Assembly (NCBI GenBank): GCA_964291265.2
Contig: OZ219747.1
Location: 1,824,001 to 1,888,000, forward strand
Direction: 5' to 3'
Length of the DNA: 64,000 bases
Source: Alphaproteobacteria bacterium
GTDB lineage: Bacteria; Pseudomonadota; Alphaproteobacteria; SP197
Positions within the stretch are counted from its first letter, which is position 1. The number at the start of each line of letters is the position of its first letter. The translations under genes and the position numbers were made by a program. This document shows, piece by piece, positions 954 to 19,145 of this stretch. The notes under the pieces are model-generated. The model searched no databases. It had not been told where the DNA came from and saw nothing but the letters and a program-made list of their open reading frames with translations.

Positions 954-1365
954 GCCCGTCGCGCCACGCGCACCGGCCTATCATGGTGCCCGGGCGAGAT
1001 GCTTGCCGTTGAGCCCCCTGCGGACGGGCAGGCCGCATGTGCTGCGCGCCCCTGCCCCCCTGTCGCGTCCGTCCCCGGCACACACAGGAGGGGTGAGCGA
1101 AACGGACGGCTGCGCAGGTTCTGATCGCAGGCAACCGGAACCATGCTCCATCGTCATCCGGTTCAGATCGTTTGACCTGCCAAAGTCGGACGACAGACCC
1201 GGATCGCATCCAGACCATGCCGAGGTTCCCTCTGATCTCAGCAGCAGTATCACGACAAGCAATTGATTGTGTTGGCAAAACGGTACGATGATGGCTTGAG
1301 AACATTGCCATGTAACGGTGAATTTTCCCTTGACACGGTGGGCTTACGCCCCCATATACGTTGCC

Positions 1366-3087
1366 ATGTACGTAGACATCGTCCCCAACCGTAACTCACC
1401 CCCCGCCGTCCTCCTGCGAGAGGGATGGCGCGAGAACGGCAAGGTCAAGAAGCGCACCATCGCCAATCTCTCCTCCTGGCCCATGGAAAAGGTCGAGACC
1501 CTGCGGCGGTTCTTGAAGAACGAACCCCTCGTCGGTCGTGACGACGCCTTCGACATCGTCCGCTCCCTCCCCCATGGGCATGTCGCCGCGGTGCTGGGAA
1601 CCCTGAAGAAGCTGGGACTGGACAGGTTGATCGACCCGAAGCCCTCGGCACGGCGCGATCAGGTCCTGGCCATGATCGTGGCACGCATCCTCGAGCCCGC
1701 CTCGAAGCTGGCCACGGCCAGGGGGCTGGCCGAGGCCACGGCGGTCAGCACCCTGGGCGAGGTCCTCGATGCGGAGATGGACGAGGACGCCCTCTACGGC
1801 GCCATGGACTGGCTCCTGGAGCGTCAGGAGAGGATCGAGCGGTCCCTGGCGAAGCGGCGCCTCGAAGAGGGCTGCCTGGTGCTCTATGACCTGACCTCGG
1901 TATGGATGGAGGGGAGAGCGTGTCCCCTGGCAAGGAGGGGTCATTCCCGGGATGGCAAGAAGGGCAAGCTGCAGATCGAGTTCGGCCTTCTGTGCGATCG
2001 GGACGGCTGTCCAGTGTCGGTGGAAGTGTTCCCCGGCAACACGGCGGACCCCGGGACGGTGGCATCACAGATCACCACGCTGCAGGAGCGCTTCTCCCTG
2101 GCGAAGGTGGTGCTGGTGGGAGACCGGGGGATGCTGACCGAGGCGCGCATACGCGAGGAGGTGAAGCCTGCGGGCCTGGACTGGATCAGCGCCTTGAGGG
2201 GACCGGCCATCCGCGCCCTTGTGGAGGCCGGCGACGTCGAGATGTCGCTCTTCGACGAGAGGGACCTGGTGGAGATCACCAGCGATGCGTATCCCGGCGA
2301 ACGCCTCATGGTCTGCCGCAACCCCCTGCTGGCCGAGGACCGGGCCCGCAAGCGCCAGGAGCTGCTCGAGGCCACCGAGGCCCTGCTTGAACCGATCGCC
2401 GCAGCGACACGGCGCGACAAGCGCCGTCTCAAGGGTGCCGACAAGATCGGGGAGAGGGTCGGCAAGGTCATCGGCAAGTACAAGATGGCGAAGCACTTCA
2501 CGTGGTCCATCGACGACGAGGGTGTCTTCACCTATGGGCGCGATGAGGCTGCCATCGCCGCCGAGGCCAGGCTCGACGGCCTCTACGTGATCCGCACCAG
2601 CCTGCCGCAGAGCGAGCTCGACGGTCCCGGCACGGTGCGCGCCTACAAGCGGCTGAGTTCGGTGGAACGGGCCTTCCGCAGCCTGAAGACCGTGGATCTG
2701 AAGGTCCGTCCCGTCTGTCACCGCACCGAACCCCGGGTCCGCGCCCATGTCTTCCTGTGCATGCTCGCCTACTACGTTGAATGGCACATGCGCCAGAAAC
2801 TGAAGCCCATGCTGTTCGACGACGAGGATGCCGAAGGCGCCGAGGCCCGCCGGCCGTCCGTCGTGGCGCCGGCAGAAGTCTCGGCGAGCGCCCGGGCCAA
2901 GGCGGCAACGAAGAGGACGCCCGGGGGTGATCCGGTGCACAGTTTCCGCACCCTCCTCGATGATCTCGCGACCATCACCCGCAACACCGTGGCGCCCCGC
3001 CTTGCGGGCGCCAAACCCTTCCAGGTCACCACGCGGCCCACGCCGCTCCAGAGAAGGGCGCTCAAGCTTCTGGGCGTGGAGCCGTAG
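1366..3087 (+). mobile_element. IS1634-family DDE transposase (intact ORF)
   Basis: MYVDIVPNRNSPPAVLLREGWRE start, LYDLTS, GHSRDGKKGK, LVGDRGML, VERAFRSLKTVDLKVRP, RVRAHVFLCMLAYYV; only weak end similarity (catgccgaggtt ~1216 vs aacttcgggctg ~3161). Confidence 0.9.
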
Positions 3088-3510: not shown

Positions 3511-6500
3511 TCAAGCTTCCCGGCGCCCTTCGACGAACATCACGAGCGCCGGCAGCATGAACAGCGTAAAGGCGCCGGCAGCGACAAGCCCGCCGAGCAT
3601 GCTGACGACGAACGGCACGAGAGCGATGAGTCCATCGCCGCGCTCGTAGAGAAGGGGCGAGAGCCCGAGCACGGTGGTGAGCGTGGTCAGGAACACGGCG
3701 CGGAACCGGTCGCGCGTGGCACCCACCGCAGCGGCAATGGCCGGGATCCCTTCATTGTCCCGGCGAATCACGTTGTAGCGATCGAGCAACACCAGAGCGT
3801 CGTTCACGACAACGCCTCCGACACCAACGATACCGAAGACCGATGTGGCGGTCAGATTCCAGCCGAGAATCCAGTGACCGAAGATGGCCCCGGCGCAGGC
3901 GATCGGAAGGCCGACAATCACCACAACGGGTTTCCAGTAGCTGCGCAGGAAGGCCGCCATCAGGCCGTAGATCACGAGCAGGACGATGGGAACGAGGGTT
4001 CCCATCGTGGCAAGCGTGGTGCGCTCGTCCCGGGCTCCTGCGTCGAGTGAGACCGAGAGCCCGGGATACCGCGCCATCAAGTCGGGAAGGAAACTCTCGG
4101 CGATGAACCGCCGCGCCTGAATGGGCGTGATCCTGCCGATGTCCGCCCGGGCGTTGACGAGCGCCGCCCGGCGACCGTCGATCCGGGTCAGCGAGGCAAG
4201 TTCCCGCTGTTCCGTGATGTGTGCCGCGATGGACAGGGGCATGTTGCCTCCGCCAGGGATCGCAATCCGCTCGCTCGCGAGCTCCCGCAGGCTTTGCCGC
4301 CGTTCGGCCGGATATCGGACAACGACCCTGATTTCATCGCGGCCGCGTTGAATTCTCTGGACTTCAAGGCCAAGAAGATTGGCGCGCAACTGCCTGCCGA
4401 TCATCGCCGGCGTCAGCCCGGCGGCTTCACCGGCTGGGGTCAGCTGGATTTCGAGATGCCGCTTGCCGGTCGCGAGGCTGTCCGAAACCTCGTAGAGACC
4501 CGGGATCCCGGCCATGAAGGCCCTGAGTTCACCGGCTGCCTTGTGCAGGTCTTGCGGATCGTCGTGAAGGAGCGCATAGGCGACCGATGGCTGGGTCTGG
4601 ATTCGTGATGTCTCGACGGACACCGATTCCAGACCTGTGACGTGGCCGACGGCCTCGCGCCACACCCGCGCGATGACCTCCGGCGACGCTTCGCGAAACG
4701 GTCGTTCATGGAGATGCAGCCTGACCGATGCAAGGTGGCTCTTGCTCGCCTCGTGCTCGCTGGTCCGCGACAGACCGCCATCCCCCAGCCTTCCGACCAT
4801 GAGGCTGATCGATGCGATCGATGTTCCTTCGAGCTGATCGTTGATGTGCGAAGCGGCCGCAGCGAAGTGGCGGGCGGCGGCAACACTCGCCTCGAAGGGG
4901 GCTCCGGCCGGCAATCTGAGGTCCGCCTGTATGGAGTCGCTGAATGCGGCGTTCGGGTCGAGAACGACGACGCGCACCATTTCCGAACGTATCAGCGCGA
5001 GGGAAGCGATCACGAAAAGAAGGCCGAGAAGAAGGGTCAGGAAAACATGACGGATGGCCCACGAGGCCGCGGGCACCACGATCGCATCCCGCAAGTCGTT
5101 GATCCAGGCGCGTGCCCGATCCTGAATCTCGCGCAGAGGCGAAAGGCTCCAGCGTCCTTCATGCGAAAGATGCGAAGGAAGGACCCAGAACGCTTCGACG
5201 AGGGAGACGATGAGAACAAGAATGGCGACCCAGGGGATGACTTTCAGAACCTGGTAGTTTCCCGTCGTTACGTACATGAGCGGAAAGAGCGCCACGATGG
5301 TCGTGATCACGCCGACCGTCACCGGGCCGACCACGGCCCTGGCGCCTGCGATCGCCGCCTCGAGCGCGCTCCTTCCCCGTTCCCGTTCCGTCGCAATGCT
5401 CTCACCGACGACCACGGCATCGTCGACCACGATGCCGATCAACAGGAAGAGCGCGAAGACCGTTCCCATGTTGAGTGTCAGGTCCGCGACATTGAAGAAC
5501 ATCAGGGCGCCGACGAAGGAGAGGGGAATCCCGACCGTGATCCAGACTGCGACACGCAGATCGAAGGCGAGAACGAGACAGAAGAACACCAGGATCGCTC
5601 CGACGACGCCGTTGCGCACGATTTCCGAGAGCCTCTCGAAGGTCGGCTCCGCCCTGTCGTTCCAGATGTCCACATCGACACCCGCCGGAGGCCTGTAGTC
5701 CGCGAGCCATTCCTTGACGCTGTCCGAGATCACGGCCAGAGACTGCTCGTCGGTGGCCTCGACACGAACGAGTATCGACGGTCTCCCGTCAACCTCAAGC
5801 AGCAGCTCCTCATCGACAAAGCCGTCGCGAATTGTCGCAAGCTCGCCGAGCCTCAGGGTTGTGCCGTCGCGCCGGGTGATGATGGCGATGTCCTCGAACT
5901 CCTCGCCATGTCTGCGCTTGTCGACCGCATGGAGGACCACACCGCCGGCGCCGGTGCGCAGCTCGCCGAACGTGAGGTTGAGGGAAGACCGCCGCACCTT
6001 GCTTGCGACCTCGGCGAGAGACAGGTCGTTGCGGCGCAACTCCTCTTCATTCAGTTCAATGGCGACCTCCCGGTCGCGGGCGCCTCTCAGCCGGATCTGG
6101 GAGACGGCCGGCAGAGCCAGAAGATCGTCGCGAATGCCCTCCGTCACGTGACGCAATGCGTCCTCGGACAGAGTCGACGACGACACCGAGAGCGTCAGCA
6201 CCTCGGGCGTGAGTTCCTTGAGCTCGACCTCGGGCGGTTCGGCGCTCACGGGCGGAAAGTTCTCGATACCGTCGATTGCGTTTCGGACACTGTCCAGCAC
6301 GGCGGCTATATCGGCGAAGGTGTCGACCTCGACCTCGACCCGGGAGAGACCTTCCGACGCGACGCCCACCACCCGGGCCACACCCGGGAGTCCGACCACG
6401 CTTTCCTCGATGCGGCGATTGATGTCCTCCTCGACCTCCGCGGGAGAGGATCCCGGCGATGACACGGTGACGCTGATCGTGCGCAAGTCGATGTTCGGAA

Positions 6501-6615
6501 AGTACTGGACGGGAAGATCGAAACCCGCGAGGACGCCTCCCAGGATCAGGAACATCATCAGGACCGTGGAGGCGACCGGGTTGCCGGCAAAGTAGGCAAT
6601 GGCTCCGTTTTTCAC
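3511..6615 (-). CDS. RND efflux permease (AcrB/AcrD/AcrF family)
   Basis: 1034 aa, NPVAS start, GIVVDDAVVVGE, GVVVNDALVL, RFRAVFLTTLTTVLGLSPL. Confidence 0.95.
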   Translation of the reverse strand: MKNGAIAYFAGNPVASTVLMMFLILGGVLAGFDLPVQYFPNIDLRTISVTVSSPGSSPAEVEEDINRRIEESVVGLPGVARVVGVASEGLSRVEVEVDTFADIAAVLDSVRNAIDGIENFPPVSAEPPEVELKELTPEVLTLSVSSSTLSEDALRHVTEGIRDDLLALPAVSQIRLRGARDREVAIELNEEELRRNDLSLAEVASKVRRSSLNLTFGELRTGAGGVVLHAVDKRRHGEEFEDIAIITRRDGTTLRLGELATIRDGFVDEELLLEVDGRPSILVRVEATDEQSLAVISDSVKEWLADYRPPAGVDVDIWNDRAEPTFERLSEIVRNGVVGAILVFFCLVLAFDLRVAVWITVGIPLSFVGALMFFNVADLTLNMGTVFALFLLIGIVVDDAVVVGESIATERERGRSALEAAIAGARAVVGPVTVGVITTIVALFPLMYVTTGNYQVLKVIPWVAILVLIVSLVEAFWVLPSHLSHEGRWSLSPLREIQDRARAWINDLRDAIVVPAASWAIRHVFLTLLLGLLFVIASLALIRSEMVRVVVLDPNAAFSDSIQADLRLPAGAPFEASVAAARHFAAAASHINDQLEGTSIASISLMVGRLGDGGLSRTSEHEASKSHLASVRLHLHERPFREASPEVIARVWREAVGHVTGLESVSVETSRIQTQPSVAYALLHDDPQDLHKAAGELRAFMAGIPGLYEVSDSLATGKRHLEIQLTPAGEAAGLTPAMIGRQLRANLLGLEVQRIQRGRDEIRVVVRYPAERRQSLRELASERIAIPGGGNMPLSIAAHITEQRELASLTRIDGRRAALVNARADIGRITPIQARRFIAESFLPDLMARYPGLSVSLDAGARDERTTLATMGTLVPIVLLVIYGLMAAFLRSYWKPVVVIVGLPIACAGAIFGHWILGWNLTATSVFGIVGVGGVVVNDALVLLDRYNVIRRDNEGIPAIAAAVGATRDRFRAVFLTTLTTVLGLSPLLYERGDGLIALVPFVVSMLGGLVAAGAFTLFMLPALVMFVEGRREA

Positions 6616-6659: not shown

Positions 6660-7832
6660 CTAATCCGCAGCCGGTGCGGCTGAGACCTCGAGACCCTCTC
6701 GCGCATCCGGCAGGGGACCGACCACCACGCCTTCGCCCGCGTCGAACGCCTCGACGATCCAGCCGTCCGAGGTGCGCCCCACCGTGTCGGGAACCGTCGC
6801 TCGCAGAACGCCATCCCTGACGGTCCAGACCGCGCCGTGTTCCCGGGCGGCCGACTCAGGTAGCACATAGACATCGCCAAGCACGGGCCCCGTGATGGCA
6901 ACCTCGGCGAAGGCGCCCGGCAGCGGAAGGGAATCCTGCTGCGAGACCTCAGAGAACTCGAGAAACAGAGAAGCAAGACGAGTCCGGGGCGCCACCACCG
7001 ACGATACACGCACCACGGTGGCCCGGTGTGTGCCTGCGTCCGTGCGGATCGACGCGGATCGGCCAATCACGGGAGCGAGATCGTCCAGGACAGCCTGCTC
7101 GACCGGTGCGCGAACCTGCAGTGCGGAGGGCTGATAGACGACACCCAGAAGCGCGGCCGGCCCGACTGTTTCCTCGGGGCCTGCCAGGGCGCCGACATCG
7201 AGTTCCGACGACACCACCCGGCTCGCATAGGGTAGAGAGATGTTCGTGCGCGACAACCGGAGCTCCGCCAGCGCCAGAGCCGCCCGCGCCCCGCCGAGCA
7301 TGGCCTCCGCCGCGGCGACCGAAGGCGGATTCCGGACATGATCGGGGACATCCATCTCCGGGCCCTCCCGCTCGACAGACCTCGCGGCTTCCTCCGCCCG
7401 GGCCATCTCGGACCTCAGCCGGGCCTCGGCTTCCGAGACTGCCATGGCGGCGGCCTCGACTTCTATCATGAATTCGGCCGGATCGATTCTGACGAAGGTC
7501 TCATTGGCCGGAATCGATCCCCCGTCAATGAAGTCGGGGGACACCCACACCACCCGGCCGACGACATCGGACACCACTCCCACCTTTCTTCCCAGGGTCA
7601 CCGAACCTGTCAGATCGAACGTGAGGGCATGCTCGGTCGATACCGGCTGGATGACGTTCACGACGGGTGTGGCCCGCTCCGGCCCCGAGATGGTTTCGCG
7701 CGGGGCCCGATCGGGCGACCTGGCGAAATAGAGGGCCATCGCGACTACGGCAAGGATCACGGCCAGTTGAACGAGGCCAAGCCAGCGTGGCTTCCGGGAA
7801 CGGGCGGTGGATTTCGTGGAGTCCTGTGACAT
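6660..7832 (-). CDS. RND periplasmic adaptor (membrane fusion protein)
   Basis: N-terminal TM, VGRVVWVSPDF lipoyl half, coiled hairpin, LSRTNISLPY, PLPGAFAEV; directly upstream of permease. Confidence 0.9.
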   Translation of the reverse strand: MSQDSTKSTARSRKPRWLGLVQLAVILAVVAMALYFARSPDRAPRETISGPERATPVVNVIQPVSTEHALTFDLTGSVTLGRKVGVVSDVVGRVVWVSPDFIDGGSIPANETFVRIDPAEFMIEVEAAAMAVSEAEARLRSEMARAEEAARSVEREGPEMDVPDHVRNPPSVAAAEAMLGGARAALALAELRLSRTNISLPYASRVVSSELDVGALAGPEETVGPAALLGVVYQPSALQVRAPVEQAVLDDLAPVIGRSASIRTDAGTHRATVVRVSSVVAPRTRLASLFLEFSEVSQQDSLPLPGAFAEVAITGPVLGDVYVLPESAAREHGAVWTVRDGVLRATVPDTVGRTSDGWIVEAFDAGEGVVVGPLPDAREGLEVSAAPAAD

Positions 7833-8031
7833 CGCTCTTTCCGGTCTCAAGTTCAGCTGGTGCGCCACCGATTTGGCGAGGATACGGGCAGGCTTGCGCT
7901 ACGCGCCGACGACAACGCTTCATCGATCTGTGAATCCGGACGCTTCCGGGAGCTGTTCATCCCTGCCGCAGTACTCCGGCGAGCAACGGCGAACCGGTCG
8001 CAGACGGCTGACCCGGGAGCGCGGCGCTGCA

Positions 8032-10572
8032 TCAGGCGGCCTCCATCAGAGCATCGATATGCGCGGCGGTCCGCCTGGCCGTTTCCATCGCCAATACCTG
8101 AAGTTCGTCGATACTGCCGGCATCGCAGGCGCGTGCGATCATCGCCCGGCAGGAGTCATCGAGACCGCTCTCTTCCAGGTCGCCGTCGACCACCAGAGGG
8201 CGGACACCGTCCAGATTCAGCCACAACCGCGCCGCATCGACCAGGTCATCCGCCACGCTCGTGTCGACTGCCTTGAGCTCACCCGCCGCCTTGAAGACCT
8301 CGGAGACCCCCTCGGCCTTCAGAATCGGGGGATGCTCTTCGGCGGAGCGCAGGCGCAGCAGCAGGGTGGCCAGCAGGATGTCCGCGAGACCGCCGGGTCC
8401 GTTCAGGATGGAGGATAGTGACGGGTCGCCGGCTCCGGGCTGCGGGCGCTGGCCGGGGAGTTCGTGTACTGCGGCGTCCGCATGACGCATCAGGACGGTT
8501 CGCCTTGCACGGTGGAAGTGCCGCTCGAGTCCTGCCGCGCCTTCTCCCGTGACATGGACAAGCCGCGCGGACGCGACCTCCGCCAGGGTATCGGCGTCGC
8601 GCTTCTCGCCGGCCAGCGCCTCCAGCTGGGCACCGGCGTTGCCCCGCTGTCCGCATGGCGGGCGCATCGCGACCGATCGAAGAAGCAGGCTCTCCTCCGC
8701 CAGGTCGGCGAGAAGCGCGTTGAGCTTCCCGCACATCGCTGCGGCATGGTCATCCGGCGCGAACCTGCCATCTCCAGGCTCCGTTCCTTCGTAGAGGAGA
8801 AGGAGCTCGACATCCGACCTCATCGTCATGCGGCGGTCGCCGAGCCTGCCGAGCGCCGCGATGGCAACCCCGCTGGCGGCGACCGGGCCGTAGCGGCTCT
8901 TGAGGTCGTCGAGGACACTTCTTGCGACTGCAGAGATGGCCACCTCCGCCATGTTGGAAAGCGGCAGTCCGGCATCGACGGGGAGGATGTCCCCCCGCAT
9001 GGTTCTGACCCCCGCCTGAAACGCACAGGCGTTGCTCCAGAACTGCACGGACTCGACGACATCCTCGCTGGTTTCGACGCCGGAGAGGGCGAGTTCCGCG
9101 GTCATCTCCTCGCGGCCGAACTCGCGGGTATAGTATAGCCGCAGGAGGCCGCGCTGAGCGGCCAGCGCCACGTCGGGCTCCAGTCCGATGTTCTCCGGAA
9201 TGATCAGTTGCTGGAACTCCCGGCCTTCTATTCCATCGAGCAGGAGGGGCCGCCTTTCCATCCAGTCAGCAAGTCGGGGAGTGCTGCGAAACGTCTCGGC
9301 GATGACCGGGAGCGAAGCCGGCCGTTCCCGGTATGCACGGCTGCAAAGGGCACGCCAGTCCTCGCTGCCCATGTTCGGATAGAATCTGCTCCGCCATTCG
9401 TCGATCAGCGGGTCCATCTTCCGGAACCAGGCGGAAGGACGATGCGCAAGAAGGGCCATCGCCCGGTAGTCCGCCGGAAACCGTGGAGCGACTTCCTCGG
9501 GGTAGTCCTGCAGCAGCGGGTACGGTCGCGCCGGATGCTGGTGATGGTCGGAATGACGCTGGCTGCAAAACAGGAGGTAATCCATCGAATCGGAAAAACT
9601 CCAGGAATGGTGAGGTCTGACCTGTTCGTACCGCCCGTTCGGCAACCGGCAGCGTTGCAGCCCGTAGTGCTGCATGTAGTCGAGGACGCGCACCGTGTAC
9701 ATGCCGTGCAGAGCCTGGAGCACCCAGACGGCGAGACCCAGCCACCCGGCGATCGTCAGTGAGAGGCCGATCCAAAGGGCCAGTTTGGCCGCCCAGCGCC
9801 AACAGGGATTCGACAGGTGCCAGACCGGAAGGCCGCGGCGGGCCAGGCGTCCGCATTGAAGGCGCGCCGCCTCGACATAGCTGATCAGGCTGGTCTTGAG
9901 AAAGAAGTCGTGGAAGCTCTGTCCTTGCGCCGGGCGCGTGTAGTCCAGCGGCGTGGCCACATGGGGATGATGGACATAGAGATGTTCTGTGTACCAGTGC
10001 GGCATCGCTATCACGCTCATCAGAACGTCGCCCAGACGCCGCGTCCACTTGTCGCGCCGGTGCAGCATCTCATGGCCGACGCTGACACAAAAGACGGAGA
10101 CCTGGACCAGGATGGCAACCAAAGCGATCCGCTCGTAGACGGTCAGGCTCGGCGAGTTGGCGACCGACCAGATCGTCAGGATGACCACCGACGGATAGGA
10201 GAGCATCCACGCCCACAAGACAGCCGTGTGCCAGAACAGCCGCGAGCGCGGCGTGTGCGTGTCGAGCACCGGGACGCCGCGCTTCACCAGCAGGCCGGTG
10301 AGCGTCATGTACGGCAGCAGGGGAAGCACGACCCAGGGAATGACCCAGGGGATGAACTCGGGCACCGCGTCGAGGGCCATTGCCGCCAGGACCGGCACGA
10401 TGAGCAGCGACCATGCGAACGGAAGAGCGCCGAAGAAGCCGACACTCCTTGCACCGGGACCGTTCAGGGCCGGCGTCCGGACCGTGCGTTCGCCTGACTG
10501 CGATGCAGTCACCGGCAGGCCATGCCCCATGTCCTGGGCTGCCGCCCGTGCCGGCGGCACGGCTTCAAGCAT
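8032..10572 (-). CDS. AlkB-like alkane 1-monooxygenase / desaturase domain fused to a degenerate GlnE-type nucleotidyltransferase domain
   Basis: His boxes HEMLH, EHLYVHH, DYMQHYGL, QRHSDHH after TM helices; C-terminal ALGRLGDRRMTMRSDVELLLLY and GGLADI resemble GlnE; start uncertain (10572 or 10530). Confidence 0.85.
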   Translation of the reverse strand: MLEAVPPARAAAQDMGHGLPVTASQSGERTVRTPALNGPGARSVGFFGALPFAWSLLIVPVLAAMALDAVPEFIPWVIPWVVLPLLPYMTLTGLLVKRGVPVLDTHTPRSRLFWHTAVLWAWMLSYPSVVILTIWSVANSPSLTVYERIALVAILVQVSVFCVSVGHEMLHRRDKWTRRLGDVLMSVIAMPHWYTEHLYVHHPHVATPLDYTRPAQGQSFHDFFLKTSLISYVEAARLQCGRLARRGLPVWHLSNPCWRWAAKLALWIGLSLTIAGWLGLAVWVLQALHGMYTVRVLDYMQHYGLQRCRLPNGRYEQVRPHHSWSFSDSMDYLLFCSQRHSDHHQHPARPYPLLQDYPEEVAPRFPADYRAMALLAHRPSAWFRKMDPLIDEWRSRFYPNMGSEDWRALCSRAYRERPASLPVIAETFRSTPRLADWMERRPLLLDGIEGREFQQLIIPENIGLEPDVALAAQRGLLRLYYTREFGREEMTAELALSGVETSEDVVESVQFWSNACAFQAGVRTMRGDILPVDAGLPLSNMAEVAISAVARSVLDDLKSRYGPVAASGVAIAALGRLGDRRMTMRSDVELLLLYEGTEPGDGRFAPDDHAAAMCGKLNALLADLAEESLLLRSVAMRPPCGQRGNAGAQLEALAGEKRDADTLAEVASARLVHVTGEGAAGLERHFHRARRTVLMRHADAAVHELPGQRPQPGAGDPSLSSILNGPGGLADILLATLLLRLRSAEEHPPILKAEGVSEVFKAAGELKAVDTSVADDLVDAARLWLNLDGVRPLVVDGDLEESGLDDSCRAMIARACDAGSIDELQVLAMETARRTAAHIDALMEAA

Positions 10573-11692
10573 CCCGACCCCGGCCAGGGTTGGCCCGGCA
10601 GTGCGCAGGCAGGACGCATGTCAGCTCCGGGACAGACGGTGCGCGAATCGCCAGGATGCTCGATCAGTGGCAGCCGCCGACGACGGATGGCACACAAGGA
10701 AGGACGGGAAGAGCGGAACATGGCAGAGCGTTGCCGTGCCGGAAGCCGGTTCGCCCAGCCAACCGAATGCCGCAGGAAAGGTGCGCCGTCCTGTCTGACC
10801 TTGACGGGCGTCCAGCCAGGCGCTTCGTGGTCGGGATTCGGGATGCGCCTGGTGCGCGTCTGCACTGCGTTCCCGGCCGTGTCGAGCGACAGTTCGGCAT
10901 CGTCGTCAGGCGTGAGGAACACCCGCAGGACAAGGGCCGGTGAACTCCGAGTTCCCGACGCATTGGATCGGACCGTCATCCGTGCCCGCCTTCTTGCCGA
11001 GCGGATCGTTCGATCCGCGAACGCGCTCAACCTCAAGACGATACCATGAACCGGAGCGAAAACGCGCATTGGCCTCACTCGCAAGTGAATCGGACCAATC
11101 GAACCGCATGAGGATGCCCGAACAGACCTGCCGACGTCAAGGCGCGGTGCATCCTCCACGTGTTGGCGTATCCTGCACGTGGATGCGGCGGAAGTCCACG
11201 ACCGCCGCGAGTTCGTCATTGAGGGAGCGGATGCTCGGGGTCGCCGGGCGGACCACGTCACGGCGCAGCAGCAGGGGGCTTGACACCGGGCGTCGGACGT
11301 CACGCCTGAGCGGCATGACGAAGACCTGCCCGGGTTGCCGTGGGGATCGTGTCGCGCCCGCCGGTACGGGAGTATCTCTTGGTTGAGCCCGGCGCCCGCC
11401 TGGCGTCCGCCTTGCAAGGTTCAGGTGTCCCGGGATCGGCGAGGGCCGCAAGCCCGGTGTTGCTGGCGATCGGATGATACCGCTGGAACTGCTGTCGAGG
11501 CTTCCAGCCGATCCAGCCGTCGCGCGTCCTGCACTTGAGGGCGCCGTTCTGCCACCAACCGGAATCAAGAGCGAGAAACCCCGGGCCAATTGTGTCGGAA
11601 GCGCTCATGGATTAGTATGGTGGGGTGTCATGCAACATGGGTGTCACGAATACTCCTGACAGTGCTTGCGCAGTGAAATCAGTCGGGCGTCA

Positions 11693-12961
11693 ATGAGCTC
11701 CTTCGACATAGAGTGGATCCTGAAGTCCCTCGCCGTCCATGTCATGACGGCTCGCGATCGCCGGAGATACGGCTTTCGCTACAATCCGCTCTCAATGCGG
11801 ACGATCCAGGATCCTTATCCGGTCTACGACCGCATCAGGCAGACGGCCCGGGCATTTGTCGCGCGAGGGCTGCATGACAACACGATTCTCACCCACCATG
11901 CCGACGTCCGCGCCTTCTCCAGCCAGGACAGGCTGTTGTCTCACGACCCCAGCAAGTTCGGGCTGAAAGACAGCAGGGTCTCCGATCCCGACAACAAGAG
12001 CCTGCTCAACCTCGACCCACCCGAGCACACACGCCTGCGCAAGCTCGTCGCCAGGGCATTCACGCCACGGACCATAGCGGCGCTGGAGCCCGAAATCCGC
12101 CGCACTGCACACGGCCTTCTGGATGGGATCGACGATCCTTCGAGCTTCGATTTCGTCCGCGCCTTCGCGCTTCCTCTGCCGATTCACACGATCGCGATCA
12201 TGCTCGGGGTCCCCAGGGACGACTACGCGAGATTCACCGCCTGGACGCTCGCCCGCGCACGGTTTGTCGAACCCATGCTCAGTTCCCGCGAGCGCCGAGC
12301 CGCGGATCGGGCGGGGCAGGAACTGTTCGACTATTTCCAGCCCATCGTCCGCGACCGGAAGGCCAATCCGCAGGCGGACATCGTCACCGAACTGGCGCGG
12401 GCCGAAGAGGAAGGTGACAAACTGACCGAGCGCGAAGTTCTCAGCCTGTTGCGCCAGCTGCTGGTGGCGGGCAGCGAGACCACCGTCAGTCTCCTCGGCA
12501 ACGGACTGCTCGCGCTCCTGCAACACCCTGAGCAGCAGGAGCAGCTTGGCAGCAATCTCGACCTGGTTCCGGGAGCGGTCGAGGAAATGCTGCGCTATGA
12601 CGCTCCGGTGCAGTTGTCGATGCGCATGGCCTACCAGGACTGCACGATCAACGGACTGCACGTGAAGGCCCGGCAGAGATTTCTCGTCATGCTGGGCGCT
12701 GCCAACCGCGACCCCGCCGCGTTTCCCGAGCCGGAGCGTTTCGATATCCATCGCAAGATGGACGCAGGAATCATGTCATTCGGAGGCGGCATGCACCATT
12801 GCCTGGGCGCGGCACTGGCTCGCATGGAAGCACGCATCGCGTTCGAGGTGCTCTATGAGAGATTCAGCGGCTTTCGGCTTCTCACGGACCGTCCGAAGTA
12901 CAGGCGAGGCCTCAACCTGAGGAGTCTGGAATCGCTCCCGGTCCGGGCGATTCCTGCATGA
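11693..12961 (+). CDS. Cytochrome P450
   Basis: LLNLDPPEHTRLR, AGSETT, EEMLRYD, heme motif FGGGMHHCLG. Confidence 0.95.
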   Translation: MSSFDIEWILKSLAVHVMTARDRRRYGFRYNPLSMRTIQDPYPVYDRIRQTARAFVARGLHDNTILTHHADVRAFSSQDRLLSHDPSKFGLKDSRVSDPDNKSLLNLDPPEHTRLRKLVARAFTPRTIAALEPEIRRTAHGLLDGIDDPSSFDFVRAFALPLPIHTIAIMLGVPRDDYARFTAWTLARARFVEPMLSSRERRAADRAGQELFDYFQPIVRDRKANPQADIVTELARAEEEGDKLTEREVLSLLRQLLVAGSETTVSLLGNGLLALLQHPEQQEQLGSNLDLVPGAVEEMLRYDAPVQLSMRMAYQDCTINGLHVKARQRFLVMLGAANRDPAAFPEPERFDIHRKMDAGIMSFGGGMHHCLGAALARMEARIAFEVLYERFSGFRLLTDRPKYRRGLNLRSLESLPVRAIPA

Positions 12962-13071
12962 TCCGGCGAGCGGGGTCGTCAGGCACGGACCCGCCGGCAG
13001 CAACCCTGTCGTGAACCCGCTGCTCATGAAGGGCCGGCCGGGACGGCGAGCATGCGAGAGTTGTTGTCCCG

Positions 13072-14118
13072 ATGGCTGAAGATGCCGGACACGCGTCGCC
13101 GGTATTCGTATTGAACTCCGGGCGCTGCGGATCGACCATGTTGTCGAACATTCTGAACTCCCACCCCGGCATTCTCAGCCTGTCCGAGTTCTTCGCGTTC
13201 CACGGCACGGCCATGTTTCGCCGCCGCCGACTGACGGGAGACCGCATGTGGGACACCCTCAGCCGGCAATCGGGGTGGACCCGCTTCATGTTGAGAGGGC
13301 GGATCGACGAGATCCTGTATCCGCTGGACGCTCCGCAGAGCCGCTATTCGCACGTGGATGTGCCTCCCATCCTGTGCACGACGCTTCCGCACATCACGAA
13401 CCGCTGCGAAGAACTCTTCGACGAAATGGAGCCGGTCGTCCGGGGCCTGCCCCGCCGGACGACCGAGGAGCAGCTGCGCGCCGTGTTCGATTGGCTGCGC
13501 CAACGGACCGGCGCCAGGGTCTGGGTCGAGCGTTCCGGTGGCTCTGCAACCTACGCAGGCACCCTGCTCAACCGGTTCCCGGATGCCCGGATCGTGCACC
13601 TCTTCCGTGACGGGCGCGAAACCGCCCTCTCGATGATGGACCACGCCAGCTTCCGCAACGCCATGGTCTATCTCCTCGCCCTGCGCAAACGCGGCTACGA
13701 CCCGCTGAAGCGTAAGGCGTGGAACAGCCCATTCTGGGATATGGTCTCGCTGAATCTGGATCCTGTGATCTATGTGCTTCTCCTGCCGAAACCGGTTCCC
13801 TGCGACCAGTTGAGGCTGACCGATTTTGGAACGATGTGGAGCGATCTGGTCGTCCGCTCGCTCGACGTCATCGACCGTCTGCCTGCCGAGAGGGTGCTGA
13901 ACCTCTCCCTCGAGAATGTCGTGACGCAGCCCGAGAGGGAATTGAGACGACTCATTCGCTTCATCGATCCAGGGCTGGAAGACGACGAGTGGGTCGCCGA
14001 GGCAGCGAAGAGACCGCGGCAGGAACGCTCCGCAGCAGGGGACCTGGATCCGGCGGAGCGCGAGGCGCTGACCCAGGCGTGCCGTCCCGGCCTCGAACGC
14101 CTCGGCTATGACGTCTAG
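13072..14118 (+). CDS. Sulfotransferase family protein
   Basis: FVLNSGRCGSTML 5'-PAPS loop; FPDARIVHLFRDGRETALS 3'-phosphate-binding motif. Confidence 0.9.
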   Translation: MAEDAGHASPVFVLNSGRCGSTMLSNILNSHPGILSLSEFFAFHGTAMFRRRRLTGDRMWDTLSRQSGWTRFMLRGRIDEILYPLDAPQSRYSHVDVPPILCTTLPHITNRCEELFDEMEPVVRGLPRRTTEEQLRAVFDWLRQRTGARVWVERSGGSATYAGTLLNRFPDARIVHLFRDGRETALSMMDHASFRNAMVYLLALRKRGYDPLKRKAWNSPFWDMVSLNLDPVIYVLLLPKPVPCDQLRLTDFGTMWSDLVVRSLDVIDRLPAERVLNLSLENVVTQPERELRRLIRFIDPGLEDDEWVAEAAKRPRQERSAAGDLDPAEREALTQACRPGLERLGYDV

Positions 14119-14164
14119 GTGGACGTGCGAAAGACGCACCATGTCGTCAAGCCTGGTGGTGGGC

Positions 14165-14299
14165 CGGTCCTTGTCGAGAGGCGATGTCGCGCTCTGGGAC
14201 AACCGCTTTACCTTGTACTGCGCCGCCTTTGACCATGGTCACCACGACCGGATCATGCATCGTGTGACGCTGAAAGGGTCACGTCCTTTCGCTGCCTGA
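14165..14299 (+). pseudogene. TauD/TfdA dioxygenase C-terminal remnant
   Basis: GDVALWDNRFTLY...RIMHRVTLKGSRPF matches the TauD C-terminus; rest of gene absent. Confidence 0.7.
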
Positions 14300-15129
14300 C
14301 GCCGACGAGCCCGGGCCTGGCGGCAGCGGGTCGCCGCTGGCCTCCAGGGTGCCCTCGGCGTCGCGCTGTTCGTCTCCCGTCAACGCCGGGCAGAAGACGG
14401 ACAGGGGGTGAAGATCGCTTCGGGCATGCATGCTGTGGCGGTCTTCGGGGCCGACGCAGTACATCATTCCCGGTTCCATGCTCCAGGTTTCCCCGGAGCC
14501 AAGGTCCTTCACCTCTCGCGTGCCGTCGAGAACGTAGTTTGCCTCCCGGTGGTGCCTGTACCACAGGATGTTGCGATTGCCCGCCGCGAGGCGGACGTCA
14601 CTGAGGGAGAACCCGACACGGTCCTCACGCAAGAGCATGCGCACCGTCGTTGCGCTGCCGCTGGCGACGACGAGCTGGCGTCCCTGGCCAACGAGTTCGT
14701 CGACGGTCCTCACGAACATGCACTCCCGGCCTTCGGGAACGGGGCCGGTCGGCGGATAGGCACCGTCGCTGTCGTGAGATTCGTCTCCGGCAAGGGGCGG
14801 ATTGAAGACGCTGACGACATGGAGCGCATCGTCGACGACGAGGCGCCGGTCGGTCGGTCCAACCGTATAGAGGGTGCCCGGAGCCAGCCGCCAGCTCCGG
14901 TCCCGTTCAAGGTCTCGCACCGTGCCCGTGCCGGCGACAACGTAGTTCGCTTCCCAGTGATTCCTGTACCACAGGACGCCGGACGTGCCGTCGGCGAGGC
15001 GTACGTCCGACATGGTGAAACCCATGCCGTCGAGGATGGTGAGAAACCGTGTCGAGCGGACCCTGCCGTCGCTCAGGACCTTTTTTCGGCGCCGACGCGG
15101 CGCCGTTCGTCAAGGGTGCGGATGAACAT
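14279..15129 (-). CDS. Tandem two-domain ectoine synthase (EctC)-like cupin; frameshifted by one missing base in an A6 run at ~15081-15086
   Basis: AGGAGG then ATG 15129 MFIRTLDE; two copies of the GF-SD...LWY-(N/H)H-EANY...G-Y-VGP-DR...SVF-P-L-GDE-D pattern; ATG is 104 nt upstream of the in-frame ORF start. Confidence 0.8.
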
Positions 15130-15139
15130 GTCAGCCTCC

Positions 15140-16303
15140 TCACGAGGAAACGGGTTCGTCCGGCAGGGCGTTGCTGCCGGTGATGCGGCGGGCGAGATAC
15201 TGGCAGAACTCGAAGTTGGGACGTTCCAGATAACTCAGGTGTCCGGGGCGTGCCAGGCCGGACCTGGCGCCGTTGAACACGGCTTCGGTTCCCAACCGAT
15301 CCTCCTCGTTGACGGCATCGAGAATCCTCTTGGTCTCGGCGATGTGTTCGGCTCCCAGCGGATCGTTGATGAAATCGGGCGCCATGCCGCCGCCGTAGAG
15401 AATCCTCACCCTGCCGGCGCCTTCCGGCTGCAGTGACAGATACCAGAAGTACCCCGGAGTCAGGGTGATCATGTGGCTGGGGTAGATGGTGATCAGCGCC
15501 GTGGTCCTGCGCCACTCGCCCTCAAGATAGGTGCAGTCGGGATGGGCGTTGGCAAGGGGGAAGTCGGATTCCTTGGTGATCCAGTGATAGTTGAACACCG
15601 CGCCTCCCGCCGGCATTTCCATCTCTCCGACTTTTGACCGGTTGCCGATGGTGCCGCGGTGGAGCTGGAAGAGGTGATAGCTCTCCATGAAGTTCTCGGC
15701 CAGAATCTTCCAGTTGGTCTCCCAGACATGCTCTTCGCGGAAGGTCTCGATGTAGTCGGCGAAGCGGTAGCGTCCCGTGACGATTTCCCCCACCGGCCGA
15801 AACAGGACTTCCGGCGGCGGAATGTCGGGATCGAGCGTGACGTAGATCCAGCCATCCCAGACATCGCAGCGTACGCGGGCAAGGCAGTAGTCGCGCTTGT
15901 CGAAGGCCGGGCTTGCATCCATCCACGGGGCATGGCGCAGGCGGCCGTCGAGGCCGTAGGACCAGGCATGGTAGGGGCAGGTAATGACCTTGCGGTTGCC
16001 GCGTCCGGCAAGGAGCAGGCTCATCCGGTGCAGGCAGACGTTGGAGAAGGCCCTGACCTCTCCGGCATGGTCGCGCACGATGAAGATCGGCTCGTCGACG
16101 AGCCTGAAGGTGAGAAAGTCGCCCCTTTCCGGAATGGCATCGGCCCGGCCGGCACAGATCCATTCCCTGGAGAACACCCGCTCCCTTTCCAGGGCCAGGA
16201 ACGCCTCGCTGGAATAGATGCCGGGAGGTGCGGCCCGCGCTTCGGCGAAGGAACGTTCCGCGTTGGTCTTCAGTTCGCCAAGGAGTGTCGCGATTGCCGC
16301 CAT
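15140..16303 (-). CDS. Rieske non-heme iron oxygenase alpha subunit (choline monooxygenase / amine N-demethylase-like)
   Basis: CLHR...CPYHAW Rieske motif; NWKILAENFMESYHLFQLH iron ligands. Confidence 0.9.
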   Translation of the reverse strand: MAAIATLLGELKTNAERSFAEARAAPPGIYSSEAFLALERERVFSREWICAGRADAIPERGDFLTFRLVDEPIFIVRDHAGEVRAFSNVCLHRMSLLLAGRGNRKVITCPYHAWSYGLDGRLRHAPWMDASPAFDKRDYCLARVRCDVWDGWIYVTLDPDIPPPEVLFRPVGEIVTGRYRFADYIETFREEHVWETNWKILAENFMESYHLFQLHRGTIGNRSKVGEMEMPAGGAVFNYHWITKESDFPLANAHPDCTYLEGEWRRTTALITIYPSHMITLTPGYFWYLSLQPEGAGRVRILYGGGMAPDFINDPLGAEHIAETKRILDAVNEEDRLGTEAVFNGARSGLARPGHLSYLERPNFEFCQYLARRITGSNALPDEPVSS

Positions 16304-17250: not shown

Positions 17251-17766
17251 CTAACTGGTACCTCTGTCCTCCGCCAGAACCATGCGGCCGACGGCCCTGT
17301 TGTGCCAGCTTCTTGTGTATGCATCTCTCAGAACCGGGTTGGACCGGTGACCGGCTTCTTCGAGCAATTTTTCCAGGGACACCAGCCGGTCGCGGAATCC
17401 GAGCCGGACCCCGCAGCGCAGGCTGGCACTGTCCGGTCCGCATAGCAGCCAGGCATCGTCCCGATGGATCGCGTGCGCCCAAAGCGAGGCCTCGCCGCGG
17501 TCCAGCGCGATGTCGGGCACCCGCACGCCCAGTTCGGTACGCTGGCGAGCCCCGACGGTGTGAACCGTCTTCAGCGATGCGCGCAACTCCAGGATGTCGA
17601 TCCGCCGCTGCGGCCGTCGGCGCTGAAATCCGGTCTGGGTTTCCGTCACGCAGTCCTCGACGGTTTCGACCGGATAGCCGCCCGTCAGAGCCCGCCACGA
17701 ACCCGTGCGGTGGCATTCGAGAATGACGTTCGTGTCCACCAGCACCGGGCCGTGGTGTCGCGCCAT
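17251..17766 (-). CDS. PIN-like domain protein (putative toxin)
   Basis: VLVDTNVI N-terminus, LDRGEASL, LLCGPD acidic PIN pattern; 6 nt downstream of the XRE-peptidase gene. Confidence 0.7.
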   Translation of the reverse strand: MARHHGPVLVDTNVILECHRTGSWRALTGGYPVETVEDCVTETQTGFQRRRPQRRIDILELRASLKTVHTVGARQRTELGVRVPDIALDRGEASLWAHAIHRDDAWLLCGPDSASLRCGVRLGFRDRLVSLEKLLEEAGHRSNPVLRDAYTRSWHNRAVGRMVLAEDRGTS

Positions 17767-17772
17767 CGCCGT

Positions 17773-18879
17773 TCACAGCTCGACAGGAATTTCGACCCCG
17801 TGCGTTGCGCACAAGTCTCCGAACTCGTCGATTGTCGAACCGAGCAATTCCGCCACGCGCCGCATCGAGACATGGCCGTCCAGGATGGCAAGGCAGAGAA
17901 CCTCCACGAACGGCCTGGAATACAGGGCAGGCGTTACGCCCCCCGCCACTTCCCGGCCGTTGTTGCGCAAGGCCGCCTCGGGCACGGCGCGCGCCACGGA
18001 CGGTTTCAGTTGGCCGAGCGCAACCAGCCGCCAGCGCAGCGCCGAGGACGTCACGCGCAGCTCGTCCGCCACGGCGTTCAGCCGGTCGATCAACCCTTCC
18101 TCGCCCAGAGACGTCCAGCCTCCGCGCCGCTGAAGCGTCGCCGCCGGCATCAGCACCGCCGCGGCGAAATTGTTGGCGAGCTGCTCCACCCGATTGCCGC
18201 CGGTCTCCCGTGCCTCTTCGGAATGCTCCGGCGGCATCGCATCCCACGTCAGGATATGAAACAGTTCGTGCGCCAGATCGAAATGACGGCGCCCTTCGAC
18301 TTCTCGGCGCGCGATCAGGACCGTGTCCAGTTCGGGCAGGCGGCAGGCCGCCCCGGAAATCCCTTCGCTGGCATCCACCATGAGGACCAGAATGCCCAAT
18401 TCCTGCTCCATGACCCCGGCCAGGCCGGTTGCCGGGGCTTCGCCGAGGCCGAACTCGGACACAAAACGCTCCCCGGCCGACATGGCGTCCTCGAAGCGCG
18501 AAGTGCGAGCCAGGCCCAGCGCCCGGCGCATCAGCGGGAGCTCGCGCCCGACCTTCGGCGCCAGCGCGCGAAACGCCGCGATCCAACGGCCGGCGCTGAG
18601 CTCGTATTTGCCGAGCTGCGCAGCGCCGGTCCCCGTATGCCTCCACGAGAAACGGCCTTCGCCGACGAGCCGGAACGGGTCCGTGAAATAGTCGAGCGGC
18701 ACCTCCAGCCTTTCCAGTACGCGCACCAGTTCATCCGCCGAGACACGCCGCGCGCCGGTTTCGATGGCCGAAACAGTCTGTCGGTCGTTGAAACCGAACA
18801 GCTGCGCAAGATCGTCTTGGGAGAACTTGCGCTCCTCGCGCAGCGCCCTGAGTCGCGTACCGATCAGTGGTGTGGACAT
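17773..18879 (-). CDS. XRE HTH + ImmA/IrrE zinc metallopeptidase
   Basis: IGTRLRALREERKFSQDDLA...TVSAIETG; RRHFDLAHELFH; EQLANNFAAAVLMP. Confidence 0.92.
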   Translation of the reverse strand: MSTPLIGTRLRALREERKFSQDDLAQLFGFNDRQTVSAIETGARRVSADELVRVLERLEVPLDYFTDPFRLVGEGRFSWRHTGTGAAQLGKYELSAGRWIAAFRALAPKVGRELPLMRRALGLARTSRFEDAMSAGERFVSEFGLGEAPATGLAGVMEQELGILVLMVDASEGISGAACRLPELDTVLIARREVEGRRHFDLAHELFHILTWDAMPPEHSEEARETGGNRVEQLANNFAAAVLMPAATLQRRGGWTSLGEEGLIDRLNAVADELRVTSSALRWRLVALGQLKPSVARAVPEAALRNNGREVAGGVTPALYSRPFVEVLCLAILDGHVSMRRVAELLGSTIDEFGDLCATHGVEIPVEL

Positions 18880-18891
18880 GATGGCCTCCCG

Positions 18892-18926
18892 ATTGCAATA
18901 TATTCTTGCACCCTGCGAATTGCAAT
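18892..18926 (-). promoter_or_regulatory. sigma70-type promoter overlapped by two ATTGCAAT palindromes (likely autoregulatory operator)
   Basis: Minus strand TTGCAA-17 nt-TATATT followed by GGGAGG RBS; ATTGCAAT at 18892-18899 and 18919-18926. Confidence 0.7.
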
Positions 18927-19014
18927 ACAACCAGGCTGGTCCCAGGCCAAGGTCGAGGTTCGCCCAGCGGCCCGGTACCCGCCCGCCTGGCGCAGGGCCC
19001 GCTGGCGGCCTTGA

Positions 19015-19145
19015 AGGCAACGCCTTCGCGTCGTCGGTGACGAGTTCCGCCCGGTCGCGCGCCCGGCTGATCTCGACGTGGAAGCTCTTCTGCGTGGTGA
19101 AATGCGGAAGGTTCGCCTCCATGGCGACGATCACATTGTCGACGG
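19015..19145 (-). pseudogene. MobF/TrwC-type relaxase-helicase C-terminal remnant
   Basis: VDNVIVAMEANLPHFTTQKSFHVEISRARDRAELVTDD resembles helicase motif VI region (YV-ISRAR). Confidence 0.75.

Follow-up and report, generated by a model that had tools for sequence, protein, structure and literature searches.

An AlkB-type membrane oxygenase joined to a GlnE-derived module that has lost its catalytic residues and is also found on RND permeases

We analysed a stretch of 64,000 nucleotides, hereafter the window, from an alphaproteobacterium of the lineage SP197 (assembly GCA_964291265.2, contig OZ219747.1, positions 1,824,001 to 1,888,000). It codes for a protein of 846 residues in which an AlkB-type membrane di-iron domain is joined to a unit derived from the adenylyltransferase GlnE, and this fusion is real and conserved. 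We describe here its two folds, its nine invariant iron histidines, the loss of catalytic residues in the GlnE-derived unit, the selection acting on it, its gene neighbours and its second home on RND permeases. The reading that we propose, and to which we give an even chance of being right, is that the GlnE-derived unit is a portable non-catalytic control or docking module carried by a tailoring hydroxylase.

8032..10572, minus strand: fusion gene, 846 aa counted from Met1 (open reading frame, translation, homologues, model).

The original prediction, made from the DNA letters, had described one continuous frame of 846 codons without naming a strand. This frame was found on the minus strand only, the plus strand at 8032-10572 being interrupted by stops. 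The true start may lie later than Met1, at Met15 or beyond, because residues 1-37 mostly have a predicted local distance difference test (pLDDT) score below 50 and the homologues begin near residues 30-45. Pfam matched FA_desaturase at residues 152-372 (E 1.3e-23) and GlnE at residues 503-653 (E 7.8e-6, slightly above the cut-off). The NCBIfam model PRK14108 matched residues 493-845 (E 1.4e-28, with 99 bits against a cut-off of 724), and the sole PDB sequence matches of the whole protein were the chains of the natural AlkB-rubredoxin fusion from Fontimonas thermophila, FtAlkB (8f6t, E 2.3e-48; 8sbb, E 4.9e-39). A structure model built from 89 aligned fusions reached a pLDDT of 88.9 and a predicted template modelling score (pTM) of 0.87 for the whole chain, and superseded a shallower model from 22 sequences (pLDDT 74.9, pTM 0.62). 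Residues 40-413 of the model superposed on 8f6t with a Z of 35.0 and a root-mean-square deviation of 3.1 over 350 aligned residues. In the same way, residues 401-844 superposed on the N-terminal unit of E. coli GlnE (1v4a, residues 9-437) with a Z of 31.4, and residues 404-846 on 3k7d with a Z of 30.4. The GlnE ancestry that the prediction had read from short motifs is borne out by these matches. In the model, the C-terminal half comprises a GlnE repeat unit in full, first helices and C-terminal bundle included, and this explains the position of the junction.

A search with the whole protein found 41 proteins, among which 20 others span the junction with 92-96% coverage of the query at 35-73% identity and one further is truncated. 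Positions 7000-14500 of the window lie within a single contig of one sequencing run, possibly the window's own source data. In the same study, another sample yielded a contig that covers 8779-11719, junction included, with 4 letters differing. Five differences were recorded inside the fusion gene, four of them silent and one K657R. Misassembly and a one-off chimera are ruled out by the full-length homologues and by the contig of the second sample. An unusual composition of the region was also considered and rejected, the content of G and C being flat at 0.62-0.68; the intergenic segment 10500-11750 showed no direct repeats and three weak inverted repeats.

9334..10455, minus strand: AlkB-type membrane di-iron domain, residues 40-413 (Pfam, PDB matches, Z 35.0 to 8f6t).
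10060..10074, minus strand: histidine box 1, H167 and H171 (alignment, invariant in 92 of 92).
9967..9987, minus strand: histidine box 2, E196-H197, H201 and H202 (FtAlkB match, alignment of 92 sequences).
9661..9681, minus strand: HYG motif, residues 298-304, with Q301 at the site of FtAlkB Glu271 (alignment).
9541..9561, minus strand: histidine box 4, H340, H343 and H344 (FtAlkB match, alignment).

The N-terminal half carries hydrophobic segments and, as predicted, all four histidine motifs of AlkB (H167-H171, H197-H201-H202, H302 and H340-H343-H344). The accounts of FtAlkB in PMC10113152 and PMC10110569 describe two irons held by nine histidines and Glu271. These nine histidines were invariant in all 92 fusion sequences aligned. 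The iron-proximal glutamate (FtAlkB Glu271/E281), directly before H302, is Q301 in the window protein and Gln in 91 of the 92, whereas the same site in stand-alone AlkB matches held Glu in 61 of 72 sequences and Gln in 9, 2 being unreadable; Glu is kept in a few early-branching fusions. The fused AlkB domains formed a single branch with a support of 99 in a FastTree tree, for which the stand-alone set had been thinned by a narrow motif filter (21 rows). Four of the six arginines by which FtAlkB docks rubredoxin are retained (R173, R178, R245 and R314). The fifth is Q317 in the window protein and K or R in 85 of 92 relatives, and the sixth is Y199, a tyrosine in 90 of 92.

No rubredoxin (PF00301) was found in the host genome, the one that carries the window, which is 100% complete; the same search matched 7 of 14 control genomes. 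Pfam found no rubredoxin domain within the fusion protein either, and the host genome gave eight Fer2 matches. Ferredoxin has been suggested as substitute donor for the AlkBs of Rhodobacteraceae (PMC8941889), and here the electrons would come from a ferredoxin-type carrier, since no rubredoxin was found. The window protein thus shares with FtAlkB the fold, the nine histidines and most of the basic donor-docking surface, and both carry an additional C-terminal cytoplasmic domain. It differs in the Gln for Glu271 and in the near-invariant tyrosine at one docking site. Its C-terminal domain is a GlnE unit of 430 residues without redox motif and predicted to be rigid, where FtAlkB has a tethered rubredoxin, and its neighbours are tailoring genes in a genome where no rubredoxin was found, unlike those of the AlkB system. 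The AlkB fusions listed in PMC4021335 have as partner rubredoxin, or ferredoxin plus reductase. The protein is classed as an AlkB-type oxygenase and not as an alkane monooxygenase, and its substrate is probably not a plain hydrocarbon. Five other AlkB-like proteins (P0126, P0138, P0146, P0193 and P0200) have Gln at the same site and end in an unrelated extension of 150-200 residues with hydrophobic segments.

8938..9324, minus strand: front helical subdomain, residues 417-545, conserved and probably the functional part (alignments, ratio of nonsynonymous to synonymous substitution rates (dN/dS), identity).
9118..9216, minus strand: insert region, about residues 453-485, with helix 466-484 and an insert of ~20 residues (alignment, model).
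8473..8937, minus strand: nucleotidyltransferase core, residues 546-700, catalytic residues lost and selection relaxed (alignment, dN/dS).
8806..8850, minus strand: eroded Gly loop and DxD, residues 575-589, with D587-V-E589 (alignment).
8032..8472, minus strand: C-terminal helical subdomain, residues 701-846, absent from some natural forms (model, short forms).

Three metal-binding aspartates and the RLRP and WE motifs serve catalysis in the superfamily of GlnE. In the window protein the DxD has become DxE (D587-V-E589) and the D-RLRP and WE motifs are gone, as the prediction had claimed. We found that this loss is a property of the family. Just 1 of 44 AlkB fusions and 0 of 89 RND fusions keep the DxD intact, against 48 of 50 GlnEs, and the third aspartate is present in none of the 44 AlkB fusions and none of the RND fusions, against 50 of 50 GlnEs. 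The tryptophan of the WE motif is absent from all 44 AlkB fusions, and RLRP and the lysine before GG are likewise lost. In place of the Gly-loop lysine, 18 of the 44 have R and 17 have D, the residue being R, D or A by clade. The clade of the window protein (clade A below) is separate, with a support of 100, from a larger sister or main clade, the srp clade. The DxD is missing from all of 20 clade-A proteins; their position 587 is occupied by D, E, G, R or K, and V, I or A stands for the third aspartate.

Selection on the module is uneven. Over 39 non-overlapping pairs with dS of 0.03-0.9, drawn from the 92 sequences, the pooled dN/dS was 0.16 for AlkB, 0.19 for residues 417-545, 0.37 for residues 546-700 and 0.40 for residues 701-840. 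Three clade-A pairs, which have high dS and one sequence common to all, gave 0.19, 0.21, 0.31 and 0.38 for AlkB, front, core and C-terminal helical part, respectively. The module is not debris, because the dN/dS of the front is ~0.2, like that of AlkB. Two natural short fusions of 585 and 626 aa end within the core and keep the front; five listed members of one cluster, which end at 676-677 aa, before the C-terminal bundle, likewise keep the front. Compared with GlnE, where two repeat units are joined by a full central domain, the module is one unit only. It begins near residue 551 of E. coli GlnE and lacks about the first 110 residues of the central domain. It keeps the whole single-unit fold of 1v4a and 3k7d and differs from them by the loss of the catalytic Asp, RLRP, WE and K-GG motifs, by an insert of ~20 residues, by a membrane protein as partner and by a conserved region that is the front and not the active site. 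The insert holds a motif A-x-x-G-L-x-R ... E, in which A472 and G475 are invariant and R478 and E484 occur in 90 of 92 sequences. A search of the ESM Atlas with residues 410-560 returned GlnE clusters only. Short early-branching fusions that keep the AlkB glutamate and end within the GlnE core (585-626 aa) were seen at L169:7694-9451 and in P0088.

Of the two functions that the prediction had offered for this half, a repurposed transferase, for instance one that activates the oxidised product with a nucleotide, is very improbable. Such an enzyme could draw on the complete fold (Z 31.4), on a core dN/dS below 1 and on D587, E589 and the basic residue at 576, which the window copy retains. However, the metal-binding and adjacent positions vary freely throughout the family, clade A included, no alternative set of polar residues is conserved in their place, and some natural forms lose the C-terminal subdomain or end inside the core. 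The pseudo-enzyme half of the prediction fared better: with the catalytic residues lost across the family and selection retained on the front, the C-terminal domain is a GlnE-derived pseudo-enzyme, probably retained for a task other than catalysis.

We found also that these bacteria have two kinds of GlnE, the canonical one and another with an insert of ~20 residues in the front helices. The insert is carried by every fusion and absent from canonical GlnE. The insert-type GlnE occurs in all 12 fusion-bearing genomes of the host genus and in four without fusion, and the two kinds coexist in several genomes. Module trees (92 rows, then 67 after 25 long or redundant ones had been dropped; quick searches, with the Shimodaira-Hasegawa-like approximate likelihood ratio test as only support) set canonical GlnE apart at a support of 100 and united all fused modules in one branch at 99. 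When rooted on canonical GlnE, this branch falls among the insert-type paralogues. Alignment and trees together place the module as a descendant of this second, insert-bearing GlnE paralogue. The mean identity of front and core is 41 and 53% in canonical GlnE, 62 and 58% in the insert paralogue, 60 and 42% in the RND fusions, 64 and 39% in the srp clade and 71 and 58% in the window's subclade. Six close pairs of the paralogue gave the lowest dN/dS in the front (0.06), against 0.12 in the core and 0.095 in the other half. The front being the most conserved part already in the insert paralogue, the constraint on it arose with the insert, before the fusions. At 15 loci of the insert paralogue, several of them from one genus, a STAS gene adjoins in 8 and a cassette of SpoIIE phosphatase and anti-sigma kinase in 6.

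The insert-bearing glnE stands beside a canonical glnE in many genomes (G000:C2:3533759-3536761; L171-L183 and L024), and its neighbours often also include genes for a periplasmic binding protein and a histidine kinase. The glnE paralogues may divide labour (G000:C1, about 121600-124400; L049 and L050): the canonical glnE of the host keeps its N-terminal unit with an eroded C-terminal catalytic motif, and in G017 and G022 the altered motif belongs to the insert-type copy.

The prediction had also thought of a sensor for glutamine or PII, by which the module would act as in GlnE and gate oxidation and export by nitrogen status. We consider this unlikely. The module begins past most of the GlnE central domain, which we take to be the PII site, and part of its conserved surface is the insert, absent from canonical GlnE. 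The residues for ATP and Mg are the very ones that were lost. PII is nevertheless present in the host genome, the short fusion of L169 lies two genes from a glnB-glnA pair, and three modules on a trimeric pump would fit the trimeric PII. A recent preprint attributes glutamine sensing to the C-terminal half of GlnE in E. coli and H. seropedicae; in the assays reported there, however, glutamine alone gave no stabilisation, MgATP being required, and the GlnE of R. rubrum did not respond to glutamine (bioRxiv 10.64898/2026.09.02.748916).

The module was then found on an unrelated membrane protein. A profile search returned P0201 (1525 aa), an AcrB-type permease bearing the same GlnE-derived tail, and a search with this tail gave 95 proteins, of which 89, in 89 clusters, are RND fusions (P0201 and P0222-P0309). 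They are about 1520 aa long, and the organisms named are gammaproteobacterial metagenome-assembled genomes (MAGs). The RND-fused modules have the same start point and the same insert as the AlkB-fused ones, and share with them the lost catalytic residues and the conserved front; the host protein is a pump instead of an oxygenase. In 40 sampled from the 86 full-length ones, mean identity was 62% in the front, 65% in the pump body and 49% in the core. In three genomes an oxygenase fusion occurs together with a pump fusion that is intact. No third partner domain was seen among the 120 listed of 143 matches, a weak negative given that the search scored only 7997 candidates. The module is likely portable, and reused on oxygenase and pump. 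Genes for RND fusions were located at L164:6712-11280, L165:7609-12159 and L166:7855-12417, with a broken copy in L170; in L164 and L166 another RND pair, which is related to the pump of the window, adjoins the fusion.

These pump fusions also bear on a structural cap, that is, ligand-free front helices which stabilise, fold or oligomerise the membrane protein while the rest is decaying baggage. As a cap would have it, the front runs on without a break from the final AlkB helices in a chain predicted as one rigid body (pTM 0.87), the positions that all classes conserve hold mostly Gly, Pro, aromatic and aliphatic residues, and the core and C-terminal helical parts are relaxed and dispensable in natural forms. 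We still judge this rather unlikely. The front is equally constrained on the unrelated RND pump and in the soluble GlnE paralogue, and recruitment was confined to copies with the insert. No such module is needed for stand-alone AlkBs and RND pumps to function, and the pump would have no evident need of a cap at that site.

In a search of genomes, the fusion occurred in 12 of 23 of the host genus and in none of the 18 others covered, the host genome having two copies. The junction pattern matched 209 stretches in GTDB genomes, 178 of them encoding a relative. A census of the best 80 of these 178 gave, from the titles, Alphaproteobacteria, Gammaproteobacteria, Binatia/Deltaproteobacteria, Nitrospirales and Vicinamibacteria, with the label MAG on nearly all. 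In metagenomes, 27 of 76 stretches held junction relatives. Titles such as Spongia_Bin9 and Candidatus Poriferihabitaceae, and the literature on srp clusters, suggest a link with sponges. In G002 and G022, long frames that match GlnE were rejected as further fusions, both being ordinary two-unit GlnEs. In L101 a partial and a full fusion face each other around a C39 ABC gene, and P0123 is a C39 ABC transporter joined to a fragment of the fusion. Our literature searches returned no paper on an AlkB-GlnE or GlnE-RND fusion; the founding srp paper, outside their coverage, may annotate the gene of the sister clade.

6660..7868, minus strand: RND periplasmic adaptor, directly downstream of the fusion on the same strand (Pfam, NCBIfam; same order in L021).
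3511..6615, minus strand: AcrB-type RND permease (Pfam; comparison with the neighbours of RND fusions).
11666..12961, plus strand: cytochrome P450, divergent from the fusion (Pfam; same arrangement in L021, 70% identical).
13072..14118, plus strand: sulfotransferase, Sulfotransfer_3 (Pfam; homologue by all 7 clade-A loci).

Clade A is represented by seven loci, the window, the second copy of the host genome, L021, L022, L167, L217 and L218. A sulfotransferase and an RND pump are neighbours in 7 of the 7, a gene of the penicillin amidase family in 6, MATE and cysN/C genes in 4 each and P450 in 2. Neither YcaO nor NHLP genes were seen near the window copy or at the other six loci. The window's permease is 63% and 45% identical to the permeases that adjoin the RND fusions in L166 and L164, respectively. 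The sulfotransferase had no PDB relative at E 0.001, the database matches of P450 and amidase were generic, and cysD and cysNC of the host genome lie on another contig.

The surroundings of the srp clade are of another kind. They were assessed in 107 loci from GTDB and metagenomes, ranked towards the srp clade and in part repeating earlier-fetched stretches, with profiles built from the loci themselves and a reach of 8 kb from the fusion. YcaO lay nearby at 85 of these loci, a protein without name at 63, an NHLP-type leader at 54, a C39 ABC transporter at 43, MMPL at 38 and a halogenase at 24; none of five srp markers tested was present at 18 loci, 9 of them with full flanks. The fusion stands mostly just upstream of YcaO, and LCCCW forms the end of 34 of the 38 precursors. 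The likeness of the unnamed protein to ABBA-type prenyltransferases is a lead only. Clusters called srp, described as coding for sponge-derived proteusins, a class of ribosomally synthesised peptides with post-translational modifications (RiPPs), have the YcaO SrpC, the NHLP-LCCCW precursor SrpE and the brominase SrpI (PMC10858898, PMC10286304, bioRxiv 10.1101/2023.06.09.544420); the sister-clade loci match these descriptions and a further one in PMC9426513, and the preprint reports the precursors as highly transcribed in sponges. The sister-clade fusion is a regular gene of srp clusters and, from the gene order, may be srpB. The srp clusters hold the sister clade, whereas the window copy has P450, sulfotransferase and RND pump and no YcaO or NHLP nearby. 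The host genome has no srp cluster, and its two YcaO genes lie on another contig, with different precursors and no fusion nearby.

With this neighbourhood the module could also serve as a dock, binding a partner or a carrier-bound substrate (the NHLP leader in srp clusters, the sulfotransferase or the pump here) and passing the product on. Tailoring and export genes stand nearby, as YcaO in 85 of 107 loci and sulfotransferase with RND pump in every clade-A locus, the window's pump is a close relative of those adjoining RND fusions, and RiPP enzymes are reported to bind NHLP leaders without the standard recognition element (PMC10858898). We regard such pathway-specific docking as quite unlikely, since the same surface is conserved despite wholly different partners (srp, sulfation, RND and the GlnE paralogue) and the host genome is without an srp cluster.

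Several further features were recorded around these loci. At L027:11537-12865 and in 40 loci, srp clusters contain an NHLP-like leader fused to a domain like squalene-hopene cyclase; together with the prenyltransferase-like gene and sometimes a polyprenyl synthase, this suggests a peptide-terpene hybrid product. A different NHLP cluster of the host (G000:C1:74088-92149) holds YcaO and C39-type ABC transporter genes, two of each, besides three NHLP-like genes, of which two end in tails rich in Ser, Thr, Ala and Gly. In the window, a protein with two cupin stretches like ectoine synthase (14279-15025, minus strand) adjoins the alpha subunit of a Rieske ring-hydroxylating oxygenase (15140-16303, minus strand). 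The cluster is flanked by a DDE transposase (1318-3087, plus strand), a second probable transposase (19936-21255, plus strand) and a helix-turn-helix/IrrE-like protein with a small partner gene (17251-19134, minus strand); it may be a moved piece of a larger cluster of G002 (L021-L022).

The reading that we prefer, of a portable control or docking module, would run as follows. A second GlnE paralogue would have gained an insert of ~20 residues, which would have given its front helical subdomain a new binding surface. A copy of its C-terminal repeat unit would have lost catalysis, and the dead unit would have been fused, at the cytoplasmic end, to two inner-membrane proteins without relation to each other, the AlkB-like oxygenase and the AcrB-type pump. 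Held rigidly on the cytoplasmic face of the oxygenase, the module might switch or tether it, and the ligand or partner acting on it would be the same as for the GlnE paralogue. The oxygenase would hydroxylate a lipophilic small molecule. In clade A the hydroxyl group would be sulfated by the neighbouring sulfotransferase, dependent on 3'-phosphoadenosine-5'-phosphosulfate, and the product would leave through the RND pump; such an oxidise-sulfate-export set could serve the production of a metabolite or the detoxification of a host compound. In the srp clade the same type of enzyme might oxidise a prenyl group or another greasy part of the srp peptide.

Some points weigh against this reading. 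The conservation of the front could reflect packing on the membrane protein only, which would leave the GlnE paralogue unexplained. With Gln in place of the iron-proximal glutamate in most members, the chemistry could be desaturation or epoxidation. The trees were quick, with no bootstrap, and dead domains that evolve fast can be drawn together in them. No insert-type GlnE is visible in many fusion genomes (for instance, 20 of 36 genomes have one match only), which requires any shared partner to exist independently of it. The seven clade-A loci come from only 4 genomes, which are related. Finally, the ligand or partner, the substrate, the activity and the regulation assumed for the protein are inferred.

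The AlkB fusions of the literature cited here serve the supply of electrons, and the AlkB-GlnE fusion does not. In it, a regulatory enzyme of housekeeping has become a dead domain reused on an oxygenase and a pump, and selection singles out a subdomain of 130 residues. The novelty lies in the clade linked to sulfation, in the fusion to pumps and in the descent of the module from an insert-bearing GlnE. The near-family-wide change from Glu to Gln is a natural test of the role proposed for this residue in AlkB. The family provides an AlkB-fold enzyme that probably tailors natural products, the srp peptide and, in clade A, probably a sulfated compound. If the module binds a ligand, it would be a new signalling module of widespread animal symbionts. 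Tentatively, and with more doubt than confidence, symbionts of several phyla might share a purpose-built regulatory pseudo-enzyme domain on tailoring oxygenases and pumps, through which one signal, possibly from the host or from a STAS partner-switching cassette, would control nitrogen assimilation, tailoring and export together.

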